A stretch of DNA of 64,000 nt from Planctomycetota bacterium (lineage in GTDB: Bacteria > Planctomycetota > UBA8108 > SXIK01). The notes beneath the pieces were generated by a model that ran no database searches, had not been told where the DNA came from, and was given only the letters and a program-made list of their open reading frames with translations. Positions 14,835 to 42,792 of the stretch are shown piece by piece (positions within the stretch are counted from its first letter, which is position 1; each line of letters opens with the position of its first letter). The stretch covers positions 3,904,001 through 3,968,000 of the forward strand of contig OZ244999.1 of assembly GCA_965223265.1 (NCBI GenBank), given 5' to 3'. A program made the position numbers and the translations under genes.

Positions 14835-16052
14835 TCAGTGGGTCGCGGGCACCACGACTCGATCGGCTAATCGTCCTATCGGCGGCAGCTCCCCGAGAAG
14901 TGGCAAAGCGTAGTCACGAAAGCTCGCCGCGATGTTGTTTCCTTCGGGAGCGACAAACTCCTGCGGTAGGCTTCTCGTGTTACGGGCAACATTGCTCAGC
15001 TCGGTCATCTCGTAGCGCACGGAATACTCAGCTCCAGGCTCGCGAATGATGACAACTGAACCGCTCTCGACGCGTCCCTCAGCAAGTGACTCGACAGCAA
15101 ATCTCCCGACGTCGCGTGCCTCGCGCGCGTCGACCTCAGAATGCATGCCAGGAAAACAGCGCTGGAGGTAACCGAACGTGTCTGCCCTCACCCGCGACGC
15201 GCCGACTCGCTTCTTCACCTGTTCAGCCAAAAAGTCGCCAAGGGCACCACTCCCTGAAAGCTGCACGTTGCCGTGAGAGTCGACCTCGCCAGTCGAGAAA
15301 ACGGGCGCGCCGTGACGATCACGGATGCCTTCGGAAACGGCCACGACGCAGCGCCCATGCTGATGGAGCACCCGAGCAACGTCGGAGCAAAACGCTTCCA
15401 CATCGAATTCCGCTTCAGGTACGTAGATCAGATGCGGTCCGTCATCTTCATGCTGGCGTCCAAGACTGGTCGCGGCCGTCAGGAATCCCGCATGCCGCCC
15501 CATGATCACGTCGATCTTGACGCCGCCGAGCGCGCGGTTGTCGAGATTGTCACCCATGAGAGCCATGGCGACGAAGCGCGCGGCCGAACCGAACCCGGGG
15601 CAGTGGTCCGTGACGAGCAAATCGTTGTCGATCGTCTTCGGGATATGAGCGACGCGAAAGTCATACCCCGCCTTGCGCGCCAATGAATCGACCAGGTGAG
15701 CTGTCTCCGCGCTATCGTTGCCGCCGATATAGAAGAAGTAACGAATGTCGTGCTTCTGAAAAATCCTGAAGATCCGCTCACACTCTTCGGCTTTGGGTTT
15801 CTTGCGGACCGAACCGAGGGCAGCGGACGGCGTCACCGCGACAGCCTCGAGCTCTGCGTCGCTCTGCGCCCCGAGGTCAATCAGCTCCTGCGCCAAAATG
15901 CCGCGGACTCCATGGCGCGCGCCATAGAAACCTGTGATCACATCGCCGAATTGCCGACTTGCCTGGACGGCGCCAACAAGACTCTGGTTGATCACGCAGG
16001 TCGGCCCGCCCGATTGGCCAATCAGCGCTTTTCCTACCAGACGACTAGTCAT
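14835..16052 (-). CDS. pfp: 6-phosphofructokinase, probably PPi-dependent
   Basis: QSGGP, YIGGNDS (Asp typical of PPi-type), PKTIDND, MGRHAG, GYLQR. Confidence 0.88.
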   Translation of the reverse strand: MTSRLVGKALIGQSGGPTCVINQSLVGAVQASRQFGDVITGFYGARHGVRGILAQELIDLGAQSDAELEAVAVTPSAALGSVRKKPKAEECERIFRIFQKHDIRYFFYIGGNDSAETAHLVDSLARKAGYDFRVAHIPKTIDNDLLVTDHCPGFGSAARFVAMALMGDNLDNRALGGVKIDVIMGRHAGFLTAATSLGRQHEDDGPHLIYVPEAEFDVEAFCSDVARVLHQHGRCVVAVSEGIRDRHGAPVFSTGEVDSHGNVQLSGSGALGDFLAEQVKKRVGASRVRADTFGYLQRCFPGMHSEVDAREARDVGRFAVESLAEGRVESGSVVIIREPGAEYSVRYEMTELSNVARNTRSLPQEFVAPEGNNIAASFRDYALPLLGELPPIGRLADRVVVPATH

Positions 16053-16387
16053 TTGTGTCCTCGAGATGACTGGATAGAATCCGGGTGCAGACCAACTCTT
16101 TTACCAGATGATCGTGACCCGGGAAAGCTTCGGGATGCGCGCAGCGACCACACACGACGCAAGCGCGCAGATTATGGCCAGAACGGGATGTTGCCAGAAA
16201 ACCGGGCAAAAACCAGCCATTCAATCTAAGTTCTTGTATTTTTGGATGATAGAACCGCGCCGCACATCAAGCCAGCGCTGAATGCATGGATTCTGCCCAC
16301 TTGCGACCATCGAGCGGATGACCACCCCTCCGCCGTAATCGCTGACATCTAAACCACTTGGGACATCTGAATGTTTTCTGCAGCAAA

Positions 16388-16403
16388 TGGAACAATGCTT
16401 GCA
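16388..16403 (+). promoter_or_regulatory. Sigma-54 -24/-12 promoter
   Basis: TGGAACAATGCTTGCA has the exact GG-N10-GC spacing and one mismatch to TGGCAC-N5-TTGCW; predicted start about 16414. Confidence 0.65.
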
Positions 16404-16413
16404 TATCGGACCT

Positions 16414-16621
16414 CACAGCAGCAAAAGAGTCCATGAGAGCGCCGCAAGGCGCGGAGTAAGAAAAAGGAAATCGGAGGGGTAACCTACGAAAGGGTAGGGT
16501 TGGGGTTGGGTATTCTCTCTTTGAGGGAGTTTGGGAGGGAAAGCAGATACCCATTTCTCCTTTTACTTGCTTCATTTCTTACGGAAGGGCGCCAGAAAAG
16601 ACGGTCTGGCGTCCTTTTTTT
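16414..16621 (+). ncRNA. Candidate sigma-54-dependent small RNA (RNA-1, about 205 nt)
   Basis: Lies between a sigma-54 motif and an intrinsic terminator; GCGCC-GCAA-GGCGC tetraloop hairpin, CCTAC/GTAGG and GGGTAT/ATACCC stems; no credible ORF. Confidence 0.55.
16585..16621 (+). terminator. Intrinsic terminator
   Basis: AAGGGCGCCAGA / TCTGGCGTCCTT stem ending in a T7 run. Confidence 0.8.
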
Positions 16622-16768
16622 GTGGGCTCGTCCAGCCGGCTCGTGGAGCGTTGTGAGTTTTTTGTTGCGCACCCCACGATTTGCCCCTAGGATGGCGCTA
16701 TCGATGTGCGTAGGGCCAACAGGCCCCTAAGATCGTGAGTTTTTAGGGAGACCTCTTGGCGCGCCGGG

Positions 16769-16973
16769 CGGCATTCATGCCGGCTTCCGCGGGTTCCGTT
16801 GGTTCCCAGTTCGGTTCCATGCTGGGGAGAGAACGGGGAAGTCCAGGGAAGCGTGGAACACCTGGCGGGTGAACGCTCATCGCGCGATGGCAGTTCGATA
16901 GACTCAAAGCTTTTTCATTTTTTCTCCTCGTTTGTGCCCCCTCGCCGTGGATCCTGCGCGAGGGGGTTTTTTT
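16769..16973 (+). ncRNA. Candidate structured small RNA (RNA-A) with anti-RBS tract; 5' end uncertain
   Basis: Consecutive hairpins, then the pyrimidine tract CTTTTTCATTTTTTCTCCTCG, then a terminator; no + strand gene lies upstream. No promoter identified. Confidence 0.5.
16936..16973 (+). terminator. Intrinsic terminator
   Basis: GCCCCCTCGC / GCGAGGGGGT stem with a T7 run. Confidence 0.8.
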
Positions 16974-17249
16974 GTGTCAGCCCGTTGACCTCGAGTCGAA
17001 TTCTCAGGTTGGCGAGAAACGGTACTCGGCGGCGTGGGTTGGTGGGCCTGAGGGTTTCTTGGTGCCGAATTCTCGCGACACTTGCTGCGCCATGCGCAGC
17101 TCTCCGGACGGCGATCGAGCCATCAACACCACGGCAGTCGGGCGCCGGATCGCGACGACAGTCCACAGAACCATTCCGTCAGCGGCTGGGACGTGACCAC
17201 CTGATCAGCGCCAGAGATCTGATCAGCGAAGAGATGCGGGGCCGCCGCT

Positions 17250-18518
17250 TCACGGACTCGTCGCGCCGTCGACACACGCCAGCTCGTCACTGATTCCGGA
17301 ATCCTCGCCAGGATACGGAAACGGACTCTCGGGCGCGGCACCCGAACGAAAGAGATGCCCGGCAAGAAACAGCGCGTCCGACACGTCAACAGCGCTGTCG
17401 TCGTTGACGTCCGCCGCGTCCGGGCATTCGAAAACTTCGCTGAGCGCGGCAATAGAGTCTTTGCCGCCGCCGACAAAAAGCCCATTGAGAATTGTCACCA
17501 CGTCAGCGAGATCAATCCGCCAGTCTCGATTGGAATCGCCGCGAACGAACAGTTCATCGCCGGAGACCACGCGAATCGTCATGGGACAAGCTCGAAACGG
17601 CTGCGCCGTGCCATCGCGCGAGAGCTCATTGACCAGCGCCGGGAAGCCATCAGCAGCAGGAACATCGGCAAAGCTGAGAATGATCTCCTCACCAACCGGC
17701 GCGTCGGGGCTGACGTCAAAAAGAAGGCGTCCAACAACACCGTTGTAAAACGACGGCAAAGGCTCGAATGGTGGCTGTAAGCCGATTCCAGCCGAGAAGG
17801 CAAACAACCCGTCGCTCGCCTGTCGGTCATACGGCAAGAAAAGCCCAGGCTCCACGCCGAGCTCGTCGAACACGGAGTCGGTGATCGAAACGGAACGCAT
17901 CGTCACGTGCTCAGGCGACACGCTGAGGCTGAGCGTGAAACCCTCAGTAGGTCCAGCGGTCGTGAGCAGGATGGGCACGCTCGCAGTCTGTCCCGGCATG
18001 ACCTTCACTTCACGGAGGAGTCGCACAAACTCAAGATCAGCGACACCGATGTCTTGGTCGCCGCAAGGTCCGCTGCGCGGCAGCCCACCGCCGCCACCAT
18101 CCCCTGCGAGAAGACCATCTTGCTCGAGATTGGCCGCGGAACGCTGACCGCAGGTGAGTCCATCAGGCGTTGGGTCTGTGCCGGCTTCGGCGCTGGGAGC
18201 CGGAATCAAGCCGCTTCGGAAAAACACACTGCCAATGAGGTAAAGTGGATCGACGAGGTCCAGCCGACCGGAATCGTCGACGTCAACGGCGTCCTCGCAA
18301 ACCACGGGAAACCCAAGGTGGAGGTGACGGAAGATCGCGAAAACGTCAGACAGCGTGACAGCGCCGTCGGCGTTTGCGTCGCCGCGAAGAAATGTAGGCT
18401 CCGCAGCACGTGCGGACGAACGGACAGAGGCTGCCAAGAAGGTGACAGCAACAGCAATCGCGACAGAGACGATCGCGCGCTCTCCACCCCTGCGCAGGAC
18501 ACAAGATCTCCAACGCAA
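17250..18518 (-). CDS. Secreted protein with two planctomycete-type dockerin-like (EF-hand) modules flanking a cohesin-like beta domain
   Basis: Signal peptide; FLRGDANADGAVTLSD...DAVDVDDSG and FVRGDSNRD..IDLAD...DAADVNDDS modules; GGAGG 7 nt before the TTG start. Confidence 0.82.
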   Translation of the reverse strand: MRWRSCVLRRGGERAIVSVAIAVAVTFLAASVRSSARAAEPTFLRGDANADGAVTLSDVFAIFRHLHLGFPVVCEDAVDVDDSGRLDLVDPLYLIGSVFFRSGLIPAPSAEAGTDPTPDGLTCGQRSAANLEQDGLLAGDGGGGGLPRSGPCGDQDIGVADLEFVRLLREVKVMPGQTASVPILLTTAGPTEGFTLSLSVSPEHVTMRSVSITDSVFDELGVEPGLFLPYDRQASDGLFAFSAGIGLQPPFEPLPSFYNGVVGRLLFDVSPDAPVGEEIILSFADVPAADGFPALVNELSRDGTAQPFRACPMTIRVVSGDELFVRGDSNRDWRIDLADVVTILNGLFVGGGKDSIAALSEVFECPDAADVNDDSAVDVSDALFLAGHLFRSGAAPESPFPYPGEDSGISDELACVDGATSP

Positions 18519-18668
18519 ATCATACCCTCCCGTGTAGCAGCCGCTGAACTCGCGGCTCAGTGTATAGTAAGGGTCAAATTCTAGAGCTCATCCGGCGCCG
18601 CATCAAGCTTCGTCCGGCAACGTTTTCACTTGAGGCCGGCTGGAATTCGACTCGAGCTGATGTGGGCC

Positions 18669-18775
18669 CGGAACAAAAGTTCCGCGCGACCATCGGAAGT
18701 GTAAATCGAAGGTTCAATTTGGCGCCGAATCCAGGCCGGAAAGTTTTCTATAAGATATTTAAAATAAATAATTTA
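18669..18775 (+). promoter_or_regulatory. Putative activator site (palindrome) and IHF-like AT-rich site
   Basis: CGGAAC-AAAA-GTTCCG at 18669-18684; AATAAATAATTTA at 18763-18775 has one mismatch to WATCAANNNNTTR. Order matches the UAS-IHF-sigma-54 layout. Confidence 0.5.
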
Positions 18776-18806
18776 CAACACTTCATCCAAGCCAAACAGA
18801 ACCCCG

Positions 18807-18822
18807 TGGCACGACCATTGCT
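18807..18822 (+). promoter_or_regulatory. Sigma-54 -24/-12 promoter
   Basis: TGGCACGACCATTGCT, a perfect consensus match; predicted start about 18833. Confidence 0.8.
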
Positions 18823-18832
18823 TTTAATTGGA

Positions 18833-18921
18833 CGGGTGGAAGTGGAGCCCTGAAACGGCCGCGGGGGCACAGGCGAGCGAGAAAAAAATGAAGTTCATGC
18901 GCCGTTTCAGGGAATCTTTTT
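18833..18921 (+). ncRNA. Candidate sigma-54-dependent small RNA (RNA-B, about 90 nt)
   Basis: Perfect 12-bp stem CCCTGAAACGGC (18848-18859) / GCCGTTTCAGGG (18901-18912) enclosing a 41-nt purine-rich loop, followed by AATCTTTTT; the 3' arm overlaps the activator stop codon in antisense. Confidence 0.55.
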
Positions 18922-21900
18922 GGAAACCCCTTCCTCAGAACCCTCGGGTTCTGCGGGCTCGAAACCGCGTCCCGGCGTGGACGGTCGAAGTTCGTGCTTG
19001 GCGATCAGCTGGCGCAAATAGCGTTCACTGATCCCGAGTGCGTGCGCGGCTTGGGGGACGTTTCCGTCAAACTCGTGGAGTGCGTCGAGAGCCAGCTGGC
19101 GCTCGGTCTCAAGACGTGCCTCTTTGAGCGTCGGAAGCTGTCTGGACGTCGACTCGCTCTGCAAAGGGACGCGGGGAGCCCGTATCACTTCTGGAGTCAC
19201 CTCGGCAGGCTGCTGGAGAAGCAGTCGAACGAGTTCGTTTTCAAGCTCGCGGACATTGCCGGGCCAGTCGTACTGCTGCCACAGCGTCAACACCTCGGGG
19301 TGTACAGCTGGGGACGGCGTGCCATGTTGAGCGCTGAGGTCTGCGATCAACAGGTTAACCAGCTCCGGAAGATCTTCGCGCCGCTGCCGCAAGGGCGGCA
19401 CGGTGAGCACCTCGCCGCTGAGGCGGTAGAAGAGATCCGATCGCAGTGTGGTACCGCTGGCCAAAACGCTGAGCGGCTGGCGACTGGAGGCTAACAGGCG
19501 AAAACTCACATCACGGTTCGAAGTGGCCCCGACTGGTCGCACGCGCCGGTCTTCGAGAACCTTCAAGATCTTTGCCTGAAGCGGCGCCGGAAACTCGGTA
19601 ACCTCATCGAGATACACGCTGCCGCCAGCCACCTGCTCAAAGATTCCGGGGCGATCCGCCGCCGCGCCGGTAAAGCTACCCCGCGCGAAGCCGAAGAGCT
19701 CCGCCTCGATCAAATTCTCCGATAGGTTGCAGACCTCGCTGAAGAACGGCAGTTCCCGGCGGCCGCCGAGCGCGTGGATCGCTCGCGCCACCAGGTCTTT
19801 CCCCGTCCCGCTCTCCCCGACGATGAGCACCGGAAGGTCGTGCTGAGCTACCCGCGAGACTCCATCGAGAAGCTCTTGCATGCGAGGAGAGCGACCGACG
19901 AGACGTCTTAACCACCCGCCGCCGGCAAGGACGCTCGTCTCCAGCTCACGCGTGGCACACTGCAGCTCCCGTCGCTGAGTCAACAGCTCAGTTTCAAGGT
20001 CCGACCGGCCGCTGGCAAGCATCTCGTTCAAGCGTCGCAGCTCATCCTCAGCTCGCGCCAACGCTGACTCCCGTTCGCGTAGGTTACTGCGCGTCGCGTG
20101 ATGCGACAGCACAGAACCAACAAGCAGGCCAGCAAGCAGGCAGGATCGACGCGTCTCAGGGTGCAGGGCGAGCTCTTCGCCGCCAAACTCGAAAACGACC
20201 TCGCGGCCGCGGATCCACTCTGTCGAGACGAATCGGCCACAGGTCTCAACGTCGCCTGACTCACGAGACGAGGCCCCACCACAGTGCTGCGCGAAGCGGC
20301 GCCAGTCCGCCGCCGGGGGCGCCGAGTACTCCAGACGACGCTCAGAACGACCGCCTGAGAAGACGAAGACAGCAGACGCTGCTAACCGCTGCTTCAGTCC
20401 GTCGAGAAAACCCTCAATTTCCGCCGCGCCCACGGAGTCGGGGAGAACTGTAGCTGCGAAGAGCGATGAGATCTCGGACGAGAGATTCGTTGCGGCGTCG
20501 GATCGGCTCGCGACGGCGCCCACGGCGCGCGGTGGCGTAGCATTCGTCAGCCCCCAAAACGTCTCAAAATCCGCTCGATCGGAATCGATCAGCCTCTGAG
20601 CGAGTCTCTGCCCAACTGTGAACTTCAGCCACTCCACTCGCCGTTGCACATCCGATGCCAGTCGGCGTCCTTCGACGAGCGCATGAGTGACAACGAACGC
20701 TTCCCACACATCCCCACGGGCAACGCCTGCCTGCAGCGCTCGAGTTAACTCCTCTCCTACAGACCCCGCGTCTCCTTCGAAGGACATCGCACCCGATAGC
20801 AAGGCCACGACGTCACGAGTCAACGCTTCGCGCTCCATCTCACTCAGCTCGCTGCGACGCCGCAGCCAACTGCGCGCAAAGTGACGTCGACCGCGGCTTA
20901 CGAGATAGAGCAGGAGGTTCAGCTGGCCAATGCGCAGATGGGTCAAGTCGTTTGTTGCTCGACTGGCGGCGATCCCTCGTCGCAAGTATTTGACCGCGAG
21001 CGACTCGTTCCCCGCAACGAGCTCGAGCTGGCCGAGGCTGAGCGCACTGTAGCCAACGCCGCGCAAATCTCCGGCAATTTCGGCCGCTTGTAACGAGGAC
21101 TCGATCAAACTTCTTCCTTCGTTGAGCGCGCCGCAGCCCCACTGGACTCGACCTGAAAGACACCGTGTGAGTCGCTCGAGAAAAACACTGGAGATGTCGG
21201 CGGCGCGGCGAGAGGCGGCGGCGCAGTGCCGCCGCGCCTTGCGTAAGTGTCCGAGATTCAGATAAATCTCACCGAGATTGTTGTGCGCCAAGACGAGATC
21301 GTTCGGACGCGTTGCAACGGTGGGGCGCAGGACGCGCTTGTAGAGTCTCATCGCGTCCAATAGTCGACCGCGCTCCCTCAAGACTCCCGCGAACCCAAGC
21401 CAGACAGTGGTCACCAAGGTGTGTCGACCGATCTCATCCGACAACGCACGTGCGCGATGAAAGAGCGATTCCGCTTCGTCAAGCTCGCGCCGTCGATAGT
21501 GAATCACAGCTCGATTGTAAACCGCACGCAGCGCTAAGACCCGGTCGCCCCGTCCACGTGCCAGTTCCTCGAGCTCTCTAAAGGACTCTTGCGCTTCATT
21601 CCACCTGCGTTTCTTGACATGAAGAATGCCGAGCTCGTTGAGCGCTGAACTCAGCACGTCGGGACGCCCGCTTTGACGCACCTCTTCAAGGTTGTGAGCC
21701 AAGGCTTCGACGAAGGGGCCGTCGTCACCATGGACTCCGAGGGCTTCAGCGTACAAGAAGAGCGTCCGGGTCCCTGAGAGCTGGCGGAGAGCTGGCGGCA
21801 GCCCCGAGAAGAGACGCAAAAACTCACTAGCTTTCTCCAGATGATGGGCGCCGCTGTCGACGTCACCGAGCGCAAAGCAAGTCGGGGCTAGTCGCGCATG

Positions 21901-24237
21901 CCACTCGTGAGCCGCGAGTCTCTCAATCAGCGCGTCGCCGCGCGCACACTCACGTTCCAGCGCGTCCTCCAGTACATCGTGCGCCTCCGCCGTGCGCCCG
22001 TTTGCACGCAGCGCTTCGAACGCGAGGCGAGCCGCCTGCCGTTGAAACCAAACTGGCGAGATGCGATCGCGATCCAAGGCCGTCAACACGTCGTCGAATC
22101 GGGACAGACGAAAGTAAGCTTGCGCCAATCGCAGTCGGAGAACAAACGACCGCCCGTCTGTCGTCGCCTGAAGCGCGTCACGACCACCGCAGCGCTCCGT
22201 CGCCGCAACGAACTCGGCGTCCAATTGGCGATGCAAAAGCCTCGAGGCGACTCGGCTGAGCTGCCGCATTGCGGCCTTAGGTGCTCCGAGCGCGGCAGTG
22301 TTTTCTGCATAGATCAGAAGCTCTCGACATGAGAGGTGCCGCGTCGCGCCCGGCTTGGGTTGAAAGTAGGTCGCGATTTGCTGGCGCAGACGCAACCATT
22401 CCTTCGGCTCAAGCAACTCCGCATGCTCGGAAACGCGCACGGTCGCCTCAAACTCCGGACGCTCGGGAGTGCCGACCAGCCGACAGACACCGTGAGCGCG
22501 CAGCGAATCAAGAGACGAGCGCCAATCCAGAGAGGTCTCGTGTGGAAAGTATTCGATCAACTGTTCGAGCGTCGCACGTTCACGTACGAGCAGCAGTGCA
22601 CCCAACACGACTTTCTCAGCTTTCGACAGAGACTCGGCGAGGGACGTCTCCACGTTGACGAGTCGGTCAGGAAGCTCTCGAGGTACGCGAAGATGTCCGA
22701 ATGAGTCGACCTGCAGCCCGAGCTGCTCTAGCCGAGCCAACGCCTGAAAGACGCGCTGTGGTAGTCCTTCTGACTCAGCCTCGAGACGCTTTATGAGCCA
22801 ATCAGGAGCCTCGTCGACAAGAAAGAACTCGCGCACGATAGCGCGGATCTCCGCCGATCCAAGAGGATCGAGATGAAGTATCTGGACTCCTGCGGGCGGC
22901 GCAGCAGCAGTGGCGAGAGCGCGCGCCAAATTCTTCGTCGCAATGAGCAACCGCGGCGATTTACGGTTCCCATCGAAGCGCTGACGGGAGGCAACCGCGC
23001 GAACGAACAAACGAGCCGGCGAGTTCGAAGGATCGTCCGAAGCTGAATCCTTCGACGAAGCGTCGAACACGTCACTCAGTAAAATGACCACGGATCTCTT
23101 GCGAAGACGCAGAAGCACGTCAGCAACGTCATCCTCTTTCGACGACAAACTCGACGATGGCGAAGGTTCATCGAGCTCACCAGCGAAACGCTGCACGGCA
23201 CGGAAGGTCTCCACGTCGTCCCAATGCTTGAAAGAAAAGACATGTAGACCTTCCATCTGAAGGCGGCCCGCGATCGCTTCAAGAAAAGCTCCGTGGCCAC
23301 TTCCTTCCGGTCCGACGACCAGATGCACTCGATCGGCGACCTCCACGACACGTCGCGCGCAGCTCGGGACGAGCGCTGCACGCCCGGCGAACCACAGATG
23401 TTGACGCCACTCCCCGCCGGTCGTCGTTCGACGCACGGCAACTCGCTCCTGCAGAACGTCGAGTGCCTCCCTCGCCCTCAGGAAGCGGCGAGGCCCAGAC
23501 ACGCTCGTCAGTCGCTCGACCAGGTCATTCAGTACGGGCGAGACGTCGTGAATGATTTGACGAAGCTGCGCCGGCCGACCAGCACGATGCCACTGCTCAA
23601 GGCCCGCACGATCGCCAAGTCGAAACGGAAGCCGCGCTGCGACCACGTGATAGAGCGACATACCGAGCGCGTAAAGATCGAGGTTCACATCACCGGCATC
23701 GACACGTGCTCGGTCCGGCTGGTACGCCGGGGTACCGCCGGCGACGGCGGCTTCGTTCATGCGATAGTGCTGCGACGTACCGAAGTCGATGAGACGCAGA
23801 CGCCCCTGCGGCGATTCGTTCGAAGTCTGGACGAGAAGGTTGGTCGGTTTCACGTCATGGTGCAGGATACCCCGGTGATCCAGATAGGCGAGCGCCGCGA
23901 GCGCGTCCGCCGCAATCTGAAGAATCCACTGCTCCCGCGCGCTCGCATCGACCCTTTGGAACGCCTGAAAAAGGTTTCCGCCGCCCACATAGTCGCTGGT
24001 GTAGTACGGGCCTGTCGACGTTTCTCCGTAGTCATGGACTCGTGCGATGTTCGGGTGAAACAGGTCGAAGAGCGTCGCGAATTCGGCAGCAAGGGCGGAC
24101 GCAGGAAACGCGAGATTGCGGAGGCGCTTCAGAGCCACGGGGGTGTTGGCTCGTTCTCGATCGAGCGCCAGAAACACCTCACCGTGCGCCCCGCCACCCA
24201 AAGATTTCACGATGTTGTAACGACGTGGGAGGCTCAT
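18907..24237 (-). CDS. Ser/Thr kinase - TPR - sigma-54 enhancer-binding protein (AAA+, Fis-type HTH) fusion
   Basis: LGGGAHGEV, VALK, HHDVKPTN, IDFG; degenerate P-loop GPEGSG; TPRs; GESGTGKD, ELFG...GSFTGA, YLDEV, DLFYRL, WPGNVREL; C-terminal AA..LGIS HTH. Confidence 0.92.
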   Translation of the reverse strand: MSLPRRYNIVKSLGGGAHGEVFLALDRERANTPVALKRLRNLAFPASALAAEFATLFDLFHPNIARVHDYGETSTGPYYTSDYVGGGNLFQAFQRVDASAREQWILQIAADALAALAYLDHRGILHHDVKPTNLLVQTSNESPQGRLRLIDFGTSQHYRMNEAAVAGGTPAYQPDRARVDAGDVNLDLYALGMSLYHVVAARLPFRLGDRAGLEQWHRAGRPAQLRQIIHDVSPVLNDLVERLTSVSGPRRFLRAREALDVLQERVAVRRTTTGGEWRQHLWFAGRAALVPSCARRVVEVADRVHLVVGPEGSGHGAFLEAIAGRLQMEGLHVFSFKHWDDVETFRAVQRFAGELDEPSPSSSLSSKEDDVADVLLRLRKRSVVILLSDVFDASSKDSASDDPSNSPARLFVRAVASRQRFDGNRKSPRLLIATKNLARALATAAAPPAGVQILHLDPLGSAEIRAIVREFFLVDEAPDWLIKRLEAESEGLPQRVFQALARLEQLGLQVDSFGHLRVPRELPDRLVNVETSLAESLSKAEKVVLGALLLVRERATLEQLIEYFPHETSLDWRSSLDSLRAHGVCRLVGTPERPEFEATVRVSEHAELLEPKEWLRLRQQIATYFQPKPGATRHLSCRELLIYAENTAALGAPKAAMRQLSRVASRLLHRQLDAEFVAATERCGGRDALQATTDGRSFVLRLRLAQAYFRLSRFDDVLTALDRDRISPVWFQRQAARLAFEALRANGRTAEAHDVLEDALERECARGDALIERLAAHEWHARLAPTCFALGDVDSGAHHLEKASEFLRLFSGLPPALRQLSGTRTLFLYAEALGVHGDDGPFVEALAHNLEEVRQSGRPDVLSSALNELGILHVKKRRWNEAQESFRELEELARGRGDRVLALRAVYNRAVIHYRRRELDEAESLFHRARALSDEIGRHTLVTTVWLGFAGVLRERGRLLDAMRLYKRVLRPTVATRPNDLVLAHNNLGEIYLNLGHLRKARRHCAAASRRAADISSVFLERLTRCLSGRVQWGCGALNEGRSLIESSLQAAEIAGDLRGVGYSALSLGQLELVAGNESLAVKYLRRGIAASRATNDLTHLRIGQLNLLLYLVSRGRRHFARSWLRRRSELSEMEREALTRDVVALLSGAMSFEGDAGSVGEELTRALQAGVARGDVWEAFVVTHALVEGRRLASDVQRRVEWLKFTVGQRLAQRLIDSDRADFETFWGLTNATPPRAVGAVASRSDAATNLSSEISSLFAATVLPDSVGAAEIEGFLDGLKQRLAASAVFVFSGGRSERRLEYSAPPAADWRRFAQHCGGASSRESGDVETCGRFVSTEWIRGREVVFEFGGEELALHPETRRSCLLAGLLVGSVLSHHATRSNLRERESALARAEDELRRLNEMLASGRSDLETELLTQRRELQCATRELETSVLAGGGWLRRLVGRSPRMQELLDGVSRVAQHDLPVLIVGESGTGKDLVARAIHALGGRRELPFFSEVCNLSENLIEAELFGFARGSFTGAAADRPGIFEQVAGGSVYLDEVTEFPAPLQAKILKVLEDRRVRPVGATSNRDVSFRLLASSRQPLSVLASGTTLRSDLFYRLSGEVLTVPPLRQRREDLPELVNLLIADLSAQHGTPSPAVHPEVLTLWQQYDWPGNVRELENELVRLLLQQPAEVTPEVIRAPRVPLQSESTSRQLPTLKEARLETERQLALDALHEFDGNVPQAAHALGISERYLRQLIAKHELRPSTPGRGFEPAEPEGSEEGVSKKIP

Positions 24238-34891: not shown

Positions 34892-35722
34892 TCAGTGAAT
34901 GCGAGTCGACGCTTTGTCACCCTGCTCGATTGCCTTGGCGGTGTGGACGATATGAGCTCCTGCCATGTTCGGGAGGACCTCGAACACCTTCACCTTTGCG
35001 ACGAACGAACTCTCACGAAAGACGGTGAACTCGTGGCCCGCTTCGACATTGTCATCGCTGCCAACAGAGAGAACGACGATTTTGTCTCCGACCGCGACGA
35101 CGCGTCCGTCGATCGGGGGCGCGGCTTTCGTCACGTCTCTGCCTGCTGCAATGGCGGCGGTCTCGATCTCTTGTCGCTGAAAATCCTGCGACAATTCGGC
35201 ATACTCCGCCCTCGCCGTGGTCAACTCCTCTTGCACTTTGGCCAAGTCGAGGCGAATCGCGTTGTGCCTCGCAACGGCTTCGTCCATTCTTTCGATCGCC
35301 TGTTTCCGCGACTCGATGGTCTCAGCAAGCCGCCGCTCCAGCGATTGAATCGTCCCCTGTGCCCCCTGAATCGTCCGCTGGCGTTCCGTTTCCATTTTGA
35401 GTGCTGCCTGCACACTCTTGCTAGCTTCAGCGAGCTCGAGGTTTTTCTGTGCGAGGTCTGCCTTCGCGGACTTGATGTCGCTGAGCGCCGCCTCAAGTGT
35501 CGCGTTGATCTTCTTGACGTCTGCATTCAACGTCGTCGCTAGCGCGGTCTTTTGGGCGATATCGCCGTTGAGACCCCGGATCGTGTTGGTTGATTCCCTA
35601 CTCAGTTTCTCGTAGGCGATCTTCCAGTCCTGCGTCAAGAGGTAGCTGGTCGACACCGCAGCGAAGAAGACGAGACTCAACACCAGGTTGATGACAATGA
35701 AGGTCTTGGCTAACGGACTCAT
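34892..35722 (-). CDS. Membrane-anchored coiled-coil protein with small C-terminal beta domain
   Basis: N-terminal TM, about 170-aa heptad-rich helix, C-terminal G.V......V.LSVG.DD.V..G..F.V.R; GGGAGG RBS. Confidence 0.8.
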   Translation of the reverse strand: MSPLAKTFIVINLVLSLVFFAAVSTSYLLTQDWKIAYEKLSRESTNTIRGLNGDIAQKTALATTLNADVKKINATLEAALSDIKSAKADLAQKNLELAEASKSVQAALKMETERQRTIQGAQGTIQSLERRLAETIESRKQAIERMDEAVARHNAIRLDLAKVQEELTTARAEYAELSQDFQRQEIETAAIAAGRDVTKAAPPIDGRVVAVGDKIVVLSVGSDDNVEAGHEFTVFRESSFVAKVKVFEVLPNMAGAHIVHTAKAIEQGDKASTRIH

Positions 35723-36293
35723 GTGCTAGATGCCTCCCTTCGGCTCGCACCGACTTGCTTGCATTTCTTCTCTTTTCGTGGCGGCAACGCGACGCCGAGC
35801 ACCTGGCGCCAGCTTCCGTCACCGCGGATTTAAGTTCTAACGTCGAAACGATTCCAAACCCCTCACGCCTCGACGAATGACCCGGGAGAATCCGCCTGTT
35901 TCCAGCACGCGTTCGAGGTGGGTGAACAGGTGCCAGATCAGGCTTTACACGCCAGGTTTGACGGTTGTCGCGAAGCAGAAAGGGGGGTTTCTGACAAGGC
36001 CAGACGTTGAATCATTTTTACGGAACATCTCCTCTAAAAGCAACCCTCAAAGGATGTAAAGGAGATCGTAGAGCTTCTGTGAAGCGTTTGTTGGGGGATC
36101 AAAGCCTCTGGATCGGCAAGGCGCTCGCCGTGCGCAGCTCGGGATCCTGCGCCCCACCTCTCTCGAAGCTCGCCGTCGCCACCGGGGACGCCCTTTGGGC
36201 GAAGCTCTCGGGGATAGCCGTGGCGGCGGAGCAGCACTCGAGGATCGGCCATCGGTTGACCCAGCCGCCAATGAGCGAGAGCTATATATATGA

Positions 36294-42133: not shown

Positions 42134-42639
42134 GCGCCGTTAGCTCGCGTTTAGCCGTTTCGCCTCGCTGTTCGCTCCGCACCGACGCCAGGGCGCGGTG
42201 AGGCGAAAACGAGCGCCCCCGGCGCGTCGAGGCCAACGAGCGGCCCAGGCGCGCGATCGCGCTGCGATCGATCGCAGCGTCCGAAGGCGGCAGACATCGG
42301 CACTCTTGGCACTCCTGAACAGGCGGCACCGGGCTCTTCTAAGCCGAGTGTGCGCTCGAAAGGCGACGCGGGCGCGAGCACCGTTCGCGGCCACACAACG
42401 CGTTACAGACGCCTCCCCCAACGACATGAGTGGACCGCTGCGTTTTGACCACCTCGCCTGTCGACGCCCACACGGTTCCTCGCAGACGAACGGCGACATG
42501 CGAATCCGCGCCGCCGCCGAATCAGAGGTCTGACAACTTGAGCTCGAAGAAAAATTCGCGACGTCAAAACACCGTCGACTGCGAAGGGGAGACGCCGAAG
42601 AAAAAAGAGCAGATGATGTCCCGGCCAAATGTCCGAGAT

Positions 42640-42792
42640 AAAAGAAGGGCGTCCCGGGCACGAATGCCCGGGACGATACGGAGGGTAAGAATGCGGGTCG
42701 CCCTAGTCAGGAACTAGGGCAGAAGGATATGGGGTATGGGGTCTATTTGTAGATGCGGTAACGGCTCACTCTCTTCTAAGAGCCAGCACCGC
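42640..42792 (-). ncRNA. Candidate C-rich small RNA (RNA-C, at least 150 nt)
   Basis: In a 1.2-kb region with no credible CDS: hairpins at 42755-42792 and 42700-42720, C-rich linkers, and a perfect 11-bp UUCG-loop stem (42650-42675) followed by CCCUUCUUUU. Confidence 0.5.

Follow-up and report, generated by a model that had tools for sequence, protein, structure and literature searches.

The small RNAs GlmY and CrcZ are under sigma-54 control, and in the ChiX/chb system the pairing between small RNA (sRNA) and sponge extends into the terminator stem and the sponge works with Hfq. Here we describe a locus in a 64,000-nucleotide stretch of DNA (the window) from a Planctomycetota bacterium (assembly GCA_965223265.1, contig OZ244999.1, positions 3,904,001 to 3,968,000 of the forward strand), in which three non-coding elements, RNA-1, RNA-A and RNA-B, lie around a dockerin gene and beside a gene for a Ser/Thr kinase-TPR-sigma-54 activator. 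All transcripts, 5′ ends and 3′ ends are predictions read from sequence. The three conserved elements are real, to judge from the promoter motifs, terminator covariation and synteny, all of which are observed, and RNA-B is probably a signal-induced sponge that would pair with and silence RNA-A, an RNA predicted to act against ribosome-binding sites (RBSs).

In its working the locus resembles QrrX/QrrT and RosA/RsaI and is a member of neither. According to the excerpts of the published accounts on which these comparisons draw, QrrX of Vibrio cholerae is likewise a stand-alone sponge with conserved complementarity to the target-binding region of its sRNAs, Qrr1-4, and with a dedicated activator, QrrT (PMC9732341). 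Here, however, the roles are swapped relative to Qrr, with a sigma-54 promoter on the sponge and a sigma-70-type promoter on the RNA that it would bind; in place of a LysR-type protein there is a candidate activator that fuses Ser/Thr kinase, TPR and AAA+ parts; and sRNA and sponge are neighbours, with no Hfq found and no sequence match in Rfam. RosA of Bacillus subtilis and RsaI of Staphylococcus aureus, the latter a likely sponge and direct mRNA regulator, pair through G-rich regions with C-rich sRNAs, as we propose below for RNA-1 and a further RNA, RNA-E; they are CcpA-controlled RNAs of Firmicutes (PMC8216469), whereas RNA-1 has a sigma-54 site, an unrelated sequence and a longer predicted duplex (25-30 bp at best). 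The ChiX/chbBC intergenic sponge likewise mimics a target, is inducible and inactivates an sRNA directed against RBSs (PMC13501541; bioRxiv 2021.04.25.441314), but it is part of an mRNA, whereas RNA-B is a unit by itself, with a promoter, an upstream site and an end. GlmY and CrcZ sequester proteins (PMC13501541); for RNA-B the predicted partner is an RNA. Pxr of Myxococcus xanthus, which acts with PxrK/PxrR, is a small RNA dependent on a sigma-54 activator, PxrR being a two-component regulator and not a kinase fusion; RNA-1 may parallel it in having a long precursor and a short active part (PMC10217877).

A literature search that left most subscription papers outside, and in which supplements could list planctomycete RNAs, turned up neither an account of these RNAs nor one of an sRNA sponge driven by sigma-54. 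The string “planctomyc” is absent from the excerpt of PMC13501541, which lists known sponges, and sigma54 is absent from that of PMC11032199, on kinase-TPR proteins of the phylum. The locus would add a sigma-54-controlled sponge whose upstream site is defined, and it offers a concrete candidate DNA target for a kinase-activator fusion. Genome sequences alone suffice to read this sRNA-sponge pair, in which two separate genes covary, and the locus makes three questions testable: sRNA pairing without Hfq or ProQ, the role of kinase fusions, and the regulation of some 330 dockerin-like proteins in one genome.

RNA-B and its complementarity to RNA-A

The genome holding the window (G000; G001, G002 and so on are relatives, and g5, f4, f5 and f6 are groups of relatives, f denoting families) is a single contig of 9.18 Mb that is 91.65% complete. 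The main features that the initial annotation had placed in the window were found again: two sigma-54 promoters on the + strand (16388-16403, with one mismatch to the consensus, and 18807-18822, exact) and three segments whose hairpins and U-runs end at 16621, 16973 and about 18921, around a dockerin gene and, for RNA-B, abutting the gene of a 1776-residue activator, both genes being confirmed by Pfam. Positions 16000-19200 are matched without differences by contigs of three DNA runs, possibly from the source sample itself. Known families were looked for with Rfam covariance models at the gathering score, which gave no match in the window and only a tRNA across seven related loci; three chance matches inside the dockerin gene (E 0.2-2.4) were dismissed. 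A generic promoter/terminator scan missed all three RNA ends, and its counts were at chance level.

RNA-B (18833-18921, +; about 90 nt) has its predicted start at about 18833, behind the exact sigma-54 promoter. A long stem closes a large loop and is followed by an imperfect U-run ending near 18921; by itself the RNA does not fold better than shuffles (z -1.7), and its last 15 nt are antisense to the 3′ end of the activator gene. The complementarity between RNA-A and RNA-B that had been noted at the outset spans 32 of 38 nt (E 0.002-0.003) and is the best non-self match of either RNA in the window.

A BLAST search of 60 relatives with RNA-B gave no orthologue, only antisense matches to RNA-A and short chance matches. 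Orthologues were located by synteny, and both strands were scanned by energy for the best complement of each genome's RNA-A. In 8/8 spacers upstream of the dockerin gene, this complement lies downstream of a sigma-54 site and on its strand; the same arrangement is seen in 7 of 30 metagenome loci (those long enough), and in G002 RNA-B adjoins the activator gene, for a total of 16 loci. Four genomes (G001, G005, G012 and G016) preserve the whole arrangement pfk, RNA-1, RNA-A, dockerin gene, activator, and G014 and G017 preserve it from RNA-1 through the activator; G007 keeps all of it except the activator, where its contig ends. The homologues are 90-220 nt long and by eye share the 15-nt core alone. 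A degenerate 17-nt RNA-B motif occurs five times in 59 genomes, each time at the syntenic place, and its reversed control once.

The core (18863-18877) is complementary to RNA-A in all 15 loci that hold both RNAs, which at the sequence level is the complementarity of a sponge. Leaving aside cores with an indel, the other 12 have 13 internal substitutions, of which 12 preserve pairing (A>G, C>U); in G005 both members of a pair have changed, a compensatory change. Moreover, the RNA-B unit is inverted in 6 of the 15 loci, with motif and promoter present in all six and the upstream palindrome in the five that have enough upstream DNA. Such an inversion keeps RNA complementarity but yields a direct repeat in the DNA, which speaks against a DNA repeat; together, these features of the 15-nt match point to RNA-RNA pairing. 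The counterpart of the core in RNA-A, 16927-16941, takes in the 3′ half of the anti-Shine-Dalgarno (anti-SD) sequence plus six bases of the 5′ arm of the RNA-A terminator, and in the predicted structure for G000 the duplex opens the whole of that arm. Measured against 20 shuffles, net co-folding energy came out ahead of 19 or more in 12 of the 15 loci.

Several findings weigh against a sponge. One substitution (in G014) breaks pairing and three related loci have a 1-nt deletion; the substitutions are of only five types, and related loci do not count as independent. In G000 (7/20 as strong), where the stem of RNA-B itself costs energy, net binding does not exceed that of shuffles, nor does it in G001 (11/20) or m133 (18/20). 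G000 has no known RNA chaperone that we could find: the Hfq, LSM, ProQ, CsrA and KhpA/B families gave no hit in this genome, the one searched (one contig, 91.65% complete), which does encode three RRM proteins, RNase E and RNase III. With these points counted, we still hold the pairing of RNA-B with RNA-A to be very probable. The proposal that RNA-B is a sigma-54-driven RBS mimic and a sponge of an anti-RBS RNA-A is supported by the comparative evidence, and so is its conserved linkage to the activator and the dockerin gene.

RNA-A and its predicted targets

RNA-A (16700-16973, +) has a variable 5′ part, an anti-RBS/anti-AUG seed (16913-16930), the RNA-B-binding segment (16927-16941) and a terminator (16936-16973), all on the + strand. 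It lies after RNA-1 and on the same strand in 19 genomes, 14 of the order and 5/5 of family f4; it was not found in family f5, and f6 gave weak, terminator-only matches. A sigma-70-type promoter pattern with 17-nt spacing is present at 14 of these 19 loci. In G000 it occupies 16665-16693 (+), with the -35 element at 16665, a 17-nt spacer and the -10 element at 16688; RNA-A has its own promoter, so its primary RNA here would be about 270 nt. The seed consists of an anti-SD sequence, a U-run and usually an anti-AUG. The terminator hairpin, with its U-run ending at 16973, has 4 of 11 stem pairs changed on both sides, and RNA-A alone does not fold better than shuffles (z -0.5). RNA-1 and RNA-A both fit the type of a trans-acting base-pairing sRNA at the sequence level, each being a stand-alone unit with a promoter, a conserved seed ahead of an intrinsic terminator, and no conserved reading frame; in the search of 60 relatives the 3′ end of RNA-1 and RNA-A are the sole parts at 85-100% identity.

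Targets were scored on our own gene calls for G000 (6679 genes, 5410 starts scored), a genome that encodes about 332 dockerin-like proteins by profile search. By longest helix, the top three of 5410 starts for RNA-A are dockerin genes with signal-peptide-like N-termini (17-19 bp), and the top 25 include 15 signal-peptide-like proteins (p 0.001) and six dockerin proteins (p 0.003). Three tandem secreted dockerin-domain genes near the rpoA-rplQ operon (G000:C1:4542164-4549146, -) are all among the top RNA-A predictions. A pattern for the complement of the seed gave 124 matches listed in 59 genomes, of which we read 50 from groups of relatives carrying RNA-A and 36 from groups in which no RNA-A was found. 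Dockerin genes make up 8 of 31 frame-opening matches in the former and 0 of 32 in the latter; the Fisher p of 0.002 overstates this difference, because seven of the eight belong to one orthologous family and the control loci are partly shorter. One dockerin family keeps an RNA-A-complementary start across the order, in at least nine genomes.

Other results count against dockerin genes as targets. The longest-helix score was the second tried, after duplex energy, by which enrichment is weak (top 50: 22 signal-peptide-like, p 0.014; 8 dockerin, p 0.01) and is gone at the top 200. After correction for SD strength, the dockerin class pairs slightly below average with RNA-A, and for the family with the kept start, genomes carrying RNA-A show no significant gain in pairing over the rest (17 vs 8, p 0.22). 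The flanked gene itself (17250-18518, -), which encodes a 422-residue protein with two dockerin-I-like domains (Pfam) as well as a hydrophobic segment at its N-terminus and is syntenic, had been put forward as a target; it ranks 1278th of 5410 for RNA-A and is not a predicted one. That RNA-A is made from a housekeeping promoter and blocks mRNAs starting GGAG-(A-rich)-AUG, the best candidates being secreted dockerin-domain genes elsewhere, is thus a tentative reading to which we give slightly less than an even chance. We have moderate confidence that RNA-B would release the translation of secreted proteins, a part of the original proposal that the helix ranking and the dockerin-family starts favour and the duplex-energy ranking and the p 0.22 contrast do not.

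RNA-1 and RNA-E

RNA-1 (16414-16621, +; predicted 208 nt) has a variable purine-rich leader, a conserved 3′ seed and a terminator, with its predicted start at about 16414, behind the sigma-54 (-24/-12) promoter at 16388-16403 (+). Among 59 genomes of a single Planctomycetota class, its core could be read in 48; in 14-nt form it is present in 45 loci, one with a single change. A covariance model matched 53 of the 59, five of them only at a paralogue, RNA-D. Outside the class the model gave just two weak matches (E ~8e-4) in 144 genomes of the phylum, and three non-planctomycete pattern matches were dropped, having neither promoter nor terminator. The seed (16550-16579, +) combines an anti-SD/anti-AUG block (16550-16564), kept in the order and in family f5, with the class-wide core (16565-16579), and contains 15 consecutive columns that are invariant across 23/23 aligned copies. 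In the terminator (16583-16621, +) 92.9% of cells are paired, compared with 43-62% in slid controls, and 3 of 12 pairs are changed on both sides. A sigma-54 pattern lies 135-368 nt upstream of the RNA-1 seed in 42 of 45 loci, two more being degenerate and one truncated, and the gene is found downstream of the mreBCD-pbp2-rodA block wherever contigs extend far enough.

RNA-1 folds better than 200/200 shuffles (z -4.3). Its seed is largely unpaired in the 3′ fragment and about 70% paired in the full-length fold, similar to folds with shuffled leaders, and an internal anti-seed switch was overall not above shuffled leaders. Family f5 genomes (L072, L077, L080, L033) contain a second copy of the RNA-1 seed without a sigma-54 site, which may stand in for RNA-A there, since RNA-A was not found in that family. 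RNA-D (G000:C1:6487856-6487930, +), present in the order and f5, has a nearly invariant pyrimidine-rich 3′ end with a terminator, a TTGACA-type promoter and upstream TGTGGA motifs.

The RNA-1 search gave no enriched class of mRNA targets (top 25: 10 signal-peptide-like, p 0.15). The only near-perfect complement of the core in G000 lies in the leader of a gene in the window (34892-35722) for a conserved 276-residue protein, encoded two genes upstream of mreB and matched in the protein atlas by hypothetical Planctomycetota clusters only. The site in this leader (35723-35770, -), which is patchy in relatives, overlaps with the AUG that opens an upstream frame of 11 codons, whose stop lies 3 nt ahead of the main start. 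Cognate RNA-1/leader pairs beat the mean of shuffled leaders in 42 of 44 cases, but shuffling destroys the SD sequence and the best site moves.

The initial annotation had given RNA-1 a distant partner, RNA-C, without coordinates. The C-rich candidate for it, with a hairpin and U-run at about 42600-42780 (-), was set aside: 6 of 30 shuffles matched or beat it, and it has no homologue in the 60 relatives. Nor is there support for RNA-1 as an RBS-mimicking decoy of RNA-C, its most conserved part being itself an anti-RBS/anti-AUG seed. The idea of a decoy survives with RNA-E as the partner. The G-rich segment of the RNA-1 leader (16487-16511, +) is complementary at 24 of 25 nt to G000:C1:6766685-6766709, the loop of RNA-E, and it fits a G-quadruplex pattern (16492-16510, +), which in strict form is found in 4 of 23 RNA-1 copies. 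RNA-E (G000:C1:6766668-6766743, +) is a stem closing a nearly invariant C-rich loop of 46-50 nt, followed by a U-run; it is present in 19 genomes (the order and f5), 13 of them with a loose sigma-70 pattern, has no Rfam match, and has a partial second copy at G000:C1:165565. RNA-1 leaders paired with RNA-E better than 30/30 shuffles in 7 of 14 genomes; of these seven, G000 and three f5 genomes helped shape the search pattern, and G001, G007 and G012 did not. The pairing is borderline in G016 and G014, and it is not above shuffles in G017 and in 4/4 g5 genomes, which speaks against it. We see an even chance that RNA-1 is a separate sigma-54 RNA under another activator with a dual role, its 3′ seed acting on mRNAs and its leader pairing with RNA-E. 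Separately, an exact-type sigma-54 site at G000:C1:5197583 (+) precedes a C-rich segment that pairs with the RNA-1 leader better than 30/30 shuffles.

The activator, rival explanations and proposed mechanism

The activator gene (18907-24237, -) encodes 1776 residues with Ser/Thr kinase, TPR, sigma-54 AAA+ and HTH parts (Pfam). The features of a bacterial enhancer-binding protein are present, with Walker A and B motifs, a GAFTGA loop (GSFTGA here, GAFTGA in four orthologues and GAFSGA in one), an arginine finger and an HTH, and the kinase motifs are intact. No transmembrane segment was found in it, and it reaches none of the NCBIfam equivalog cut-offs shown (best 25 of 36), which leaves it with no named subfamily. 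G000 has two rpoN genes, and it contains 15 strict and 43 relaxed sigma-54 sites, compared with about 6 and 12 in a Markov simulation.

A palindrome, GGAAC-N4-GTTCC (18670-18683), with TGTAAA 16 nt downstream, forms the candidate upstream activator site of RNA-B (18670-18705, +). This palindrome, followed by TGTAAA after 16-18 nt, recurs at 15 of 16 RNA-B loci, 114-148 bp ahead of the promoter, the sixteenth being truncated; of the 11 exact matches in G000, no other is intergenic. Long activator matches or a syntenic copy occur in 8 of 33 genomes, and all eight have RNA-B; ten g5 genomes keep RNA-1 and RNA-A and have activator-domain matches only and no RNA-B motif. In G036, of another family, the activator has an adjacent sigma-54 site and a similar palindrome. 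Two genomes weaken the link: G036 has the activator module and no RNA-A or RNA-B motif that we found, and G007 has RNA-B and the palindrome with no long activator match (89% complete, contig ends). We consider it somewhat more likely than not, from the conserved arrangement, that the adjacent kinase-TPR-activator binds the palindrome and switches on sigma-54 transcription of RNA-B. The original suggestion that it also drives RNA-1 is not supported: not one of 41 regions upstream of RNA-1 contains the RNA-B element, these regions having another, GGCC-type dyad in common, and RNA-1 is kept even by genomes in which no fusion was found. As the palindrome precedes RNA-B (15/16) and not RNA-1 (0/41), the kinase-activator likely drives only RNA-B, and a separate activator would serve RNA-1.

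Complementarity has no direction, and RNA-B in G000 carries an SD-like stretch and an AUG; RNA-A might then regulate RNA-B (or a longer transcript), or the duplex might be a threshold device of mutual destruction, as could be argued from the shortening of QrrX half-life by Qrr1-3 in the excerpted account (PMC9732341). We regard this as improbable, however, for RNA-B has no other conserved sequence, the AUG is absent from the motif flank in other loci, and the RNA-A seed reaches past the RNA-B-bound part and is kept in g5 and f4, two groups that gave no RNA-B motif. A DNA-level origin, with the motifs as inverted repeats or operators around the dockerin gene and the hairpins as ordinary terminators of convergent genes, is very improbable given the direct repeat in 6 of 15 loci, a motif that is always on the strand of its promoter, substitutions that favour G-U wobble, U-runs on the plus strand, and an RNA-A kept without the dockerin gene in g5. 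It would fit G000, where the motifs do form an inverted repeat around that gene, the RNA-A hairpin lies downstream of the convergent dockerin gene and the RNA-B hairpin overlaps the end of the activator gene.

The RNAs might instead bind proteins such as RRM proteins, the C/U-rich and G-rich tracts being protein sites and the complementarity partly compositional. This would suit the GGGU units repeated in RNA-1 leaders and the ACCC units repeated in RNA-E, the presence in G000 of three RRM proteins where Hfq, ProQ, CsrA and KhpA/B were not found, and the lack of a near-perfect start-codon target of the RNA-1 core; yet it leaves unexplained the non-repetitive 15-nt match of RNA-A and RNA-B, its wobble-only drift and the compensatory change, and we judge it quite unlikely. 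Hardly credible is a reading of the seeds as RBSs of small minus-strand proteins, in the manner of a type I toxin-antitoxin system, since the antisense frames, which run to 9-102 residues at RNA-1 and 4-117 at RNA-A, have no common sequence past the seed, the AUG is missing at RNA-A in 4 of 13 loci and the RNA-1 frame is shifted in g5, even though strong RBS-plus-AUG patterns stand opposite both seeds. No conserved small hydrophobic antisense protein was found among these frames.

If RNA-B is a sponge of RNA-A, RNA-A would be constitutive and would repress mRNAs with strong RBSs, probably for abundant secreted proteins. A signal sensed by the kinase-TPR part would render the AAA+ domain active and lead to transcription of RNA-B, which would cover half of the RNA-A anti-SD sequence, invade the 5′ arm of the terminator and open the 3′ hairpin. 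RNA-A would thereby be sequestered, the duplex likely removed by RNase III or RNase E, and the targets of RNA-A freed. RNA-1 would respond to a different signal and likely repress mRNAs and titrate RNA-E. A wider scheme is doubtful: riboregulation across the class by long-duplex sRNA/sponge pairs and with no known chaperone, in which a cytoplasmic kinase-activator would reach dockerin translation only through RNA-B, and RNA-1 would both repress mRNAs and titrate RNA-E.

Seven other RNA candidates in G000 gave no pairing above 12.5 weighted bp. In G036, the sigma-54 site and palindrome beside the kinase-activator (G036:C1, near 248700-249400) precede a different, SD-like RNA candidate, for which no partner was found. 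Elsewhere in the window, 42215-42315 holds an element of about 95 nt with five further copies in G000 at 72-74% identity. From G000:C1:8050034 onward, several copies of a palindrome, which we take to be parS-like, are found downstream of a sigma-54-type site.

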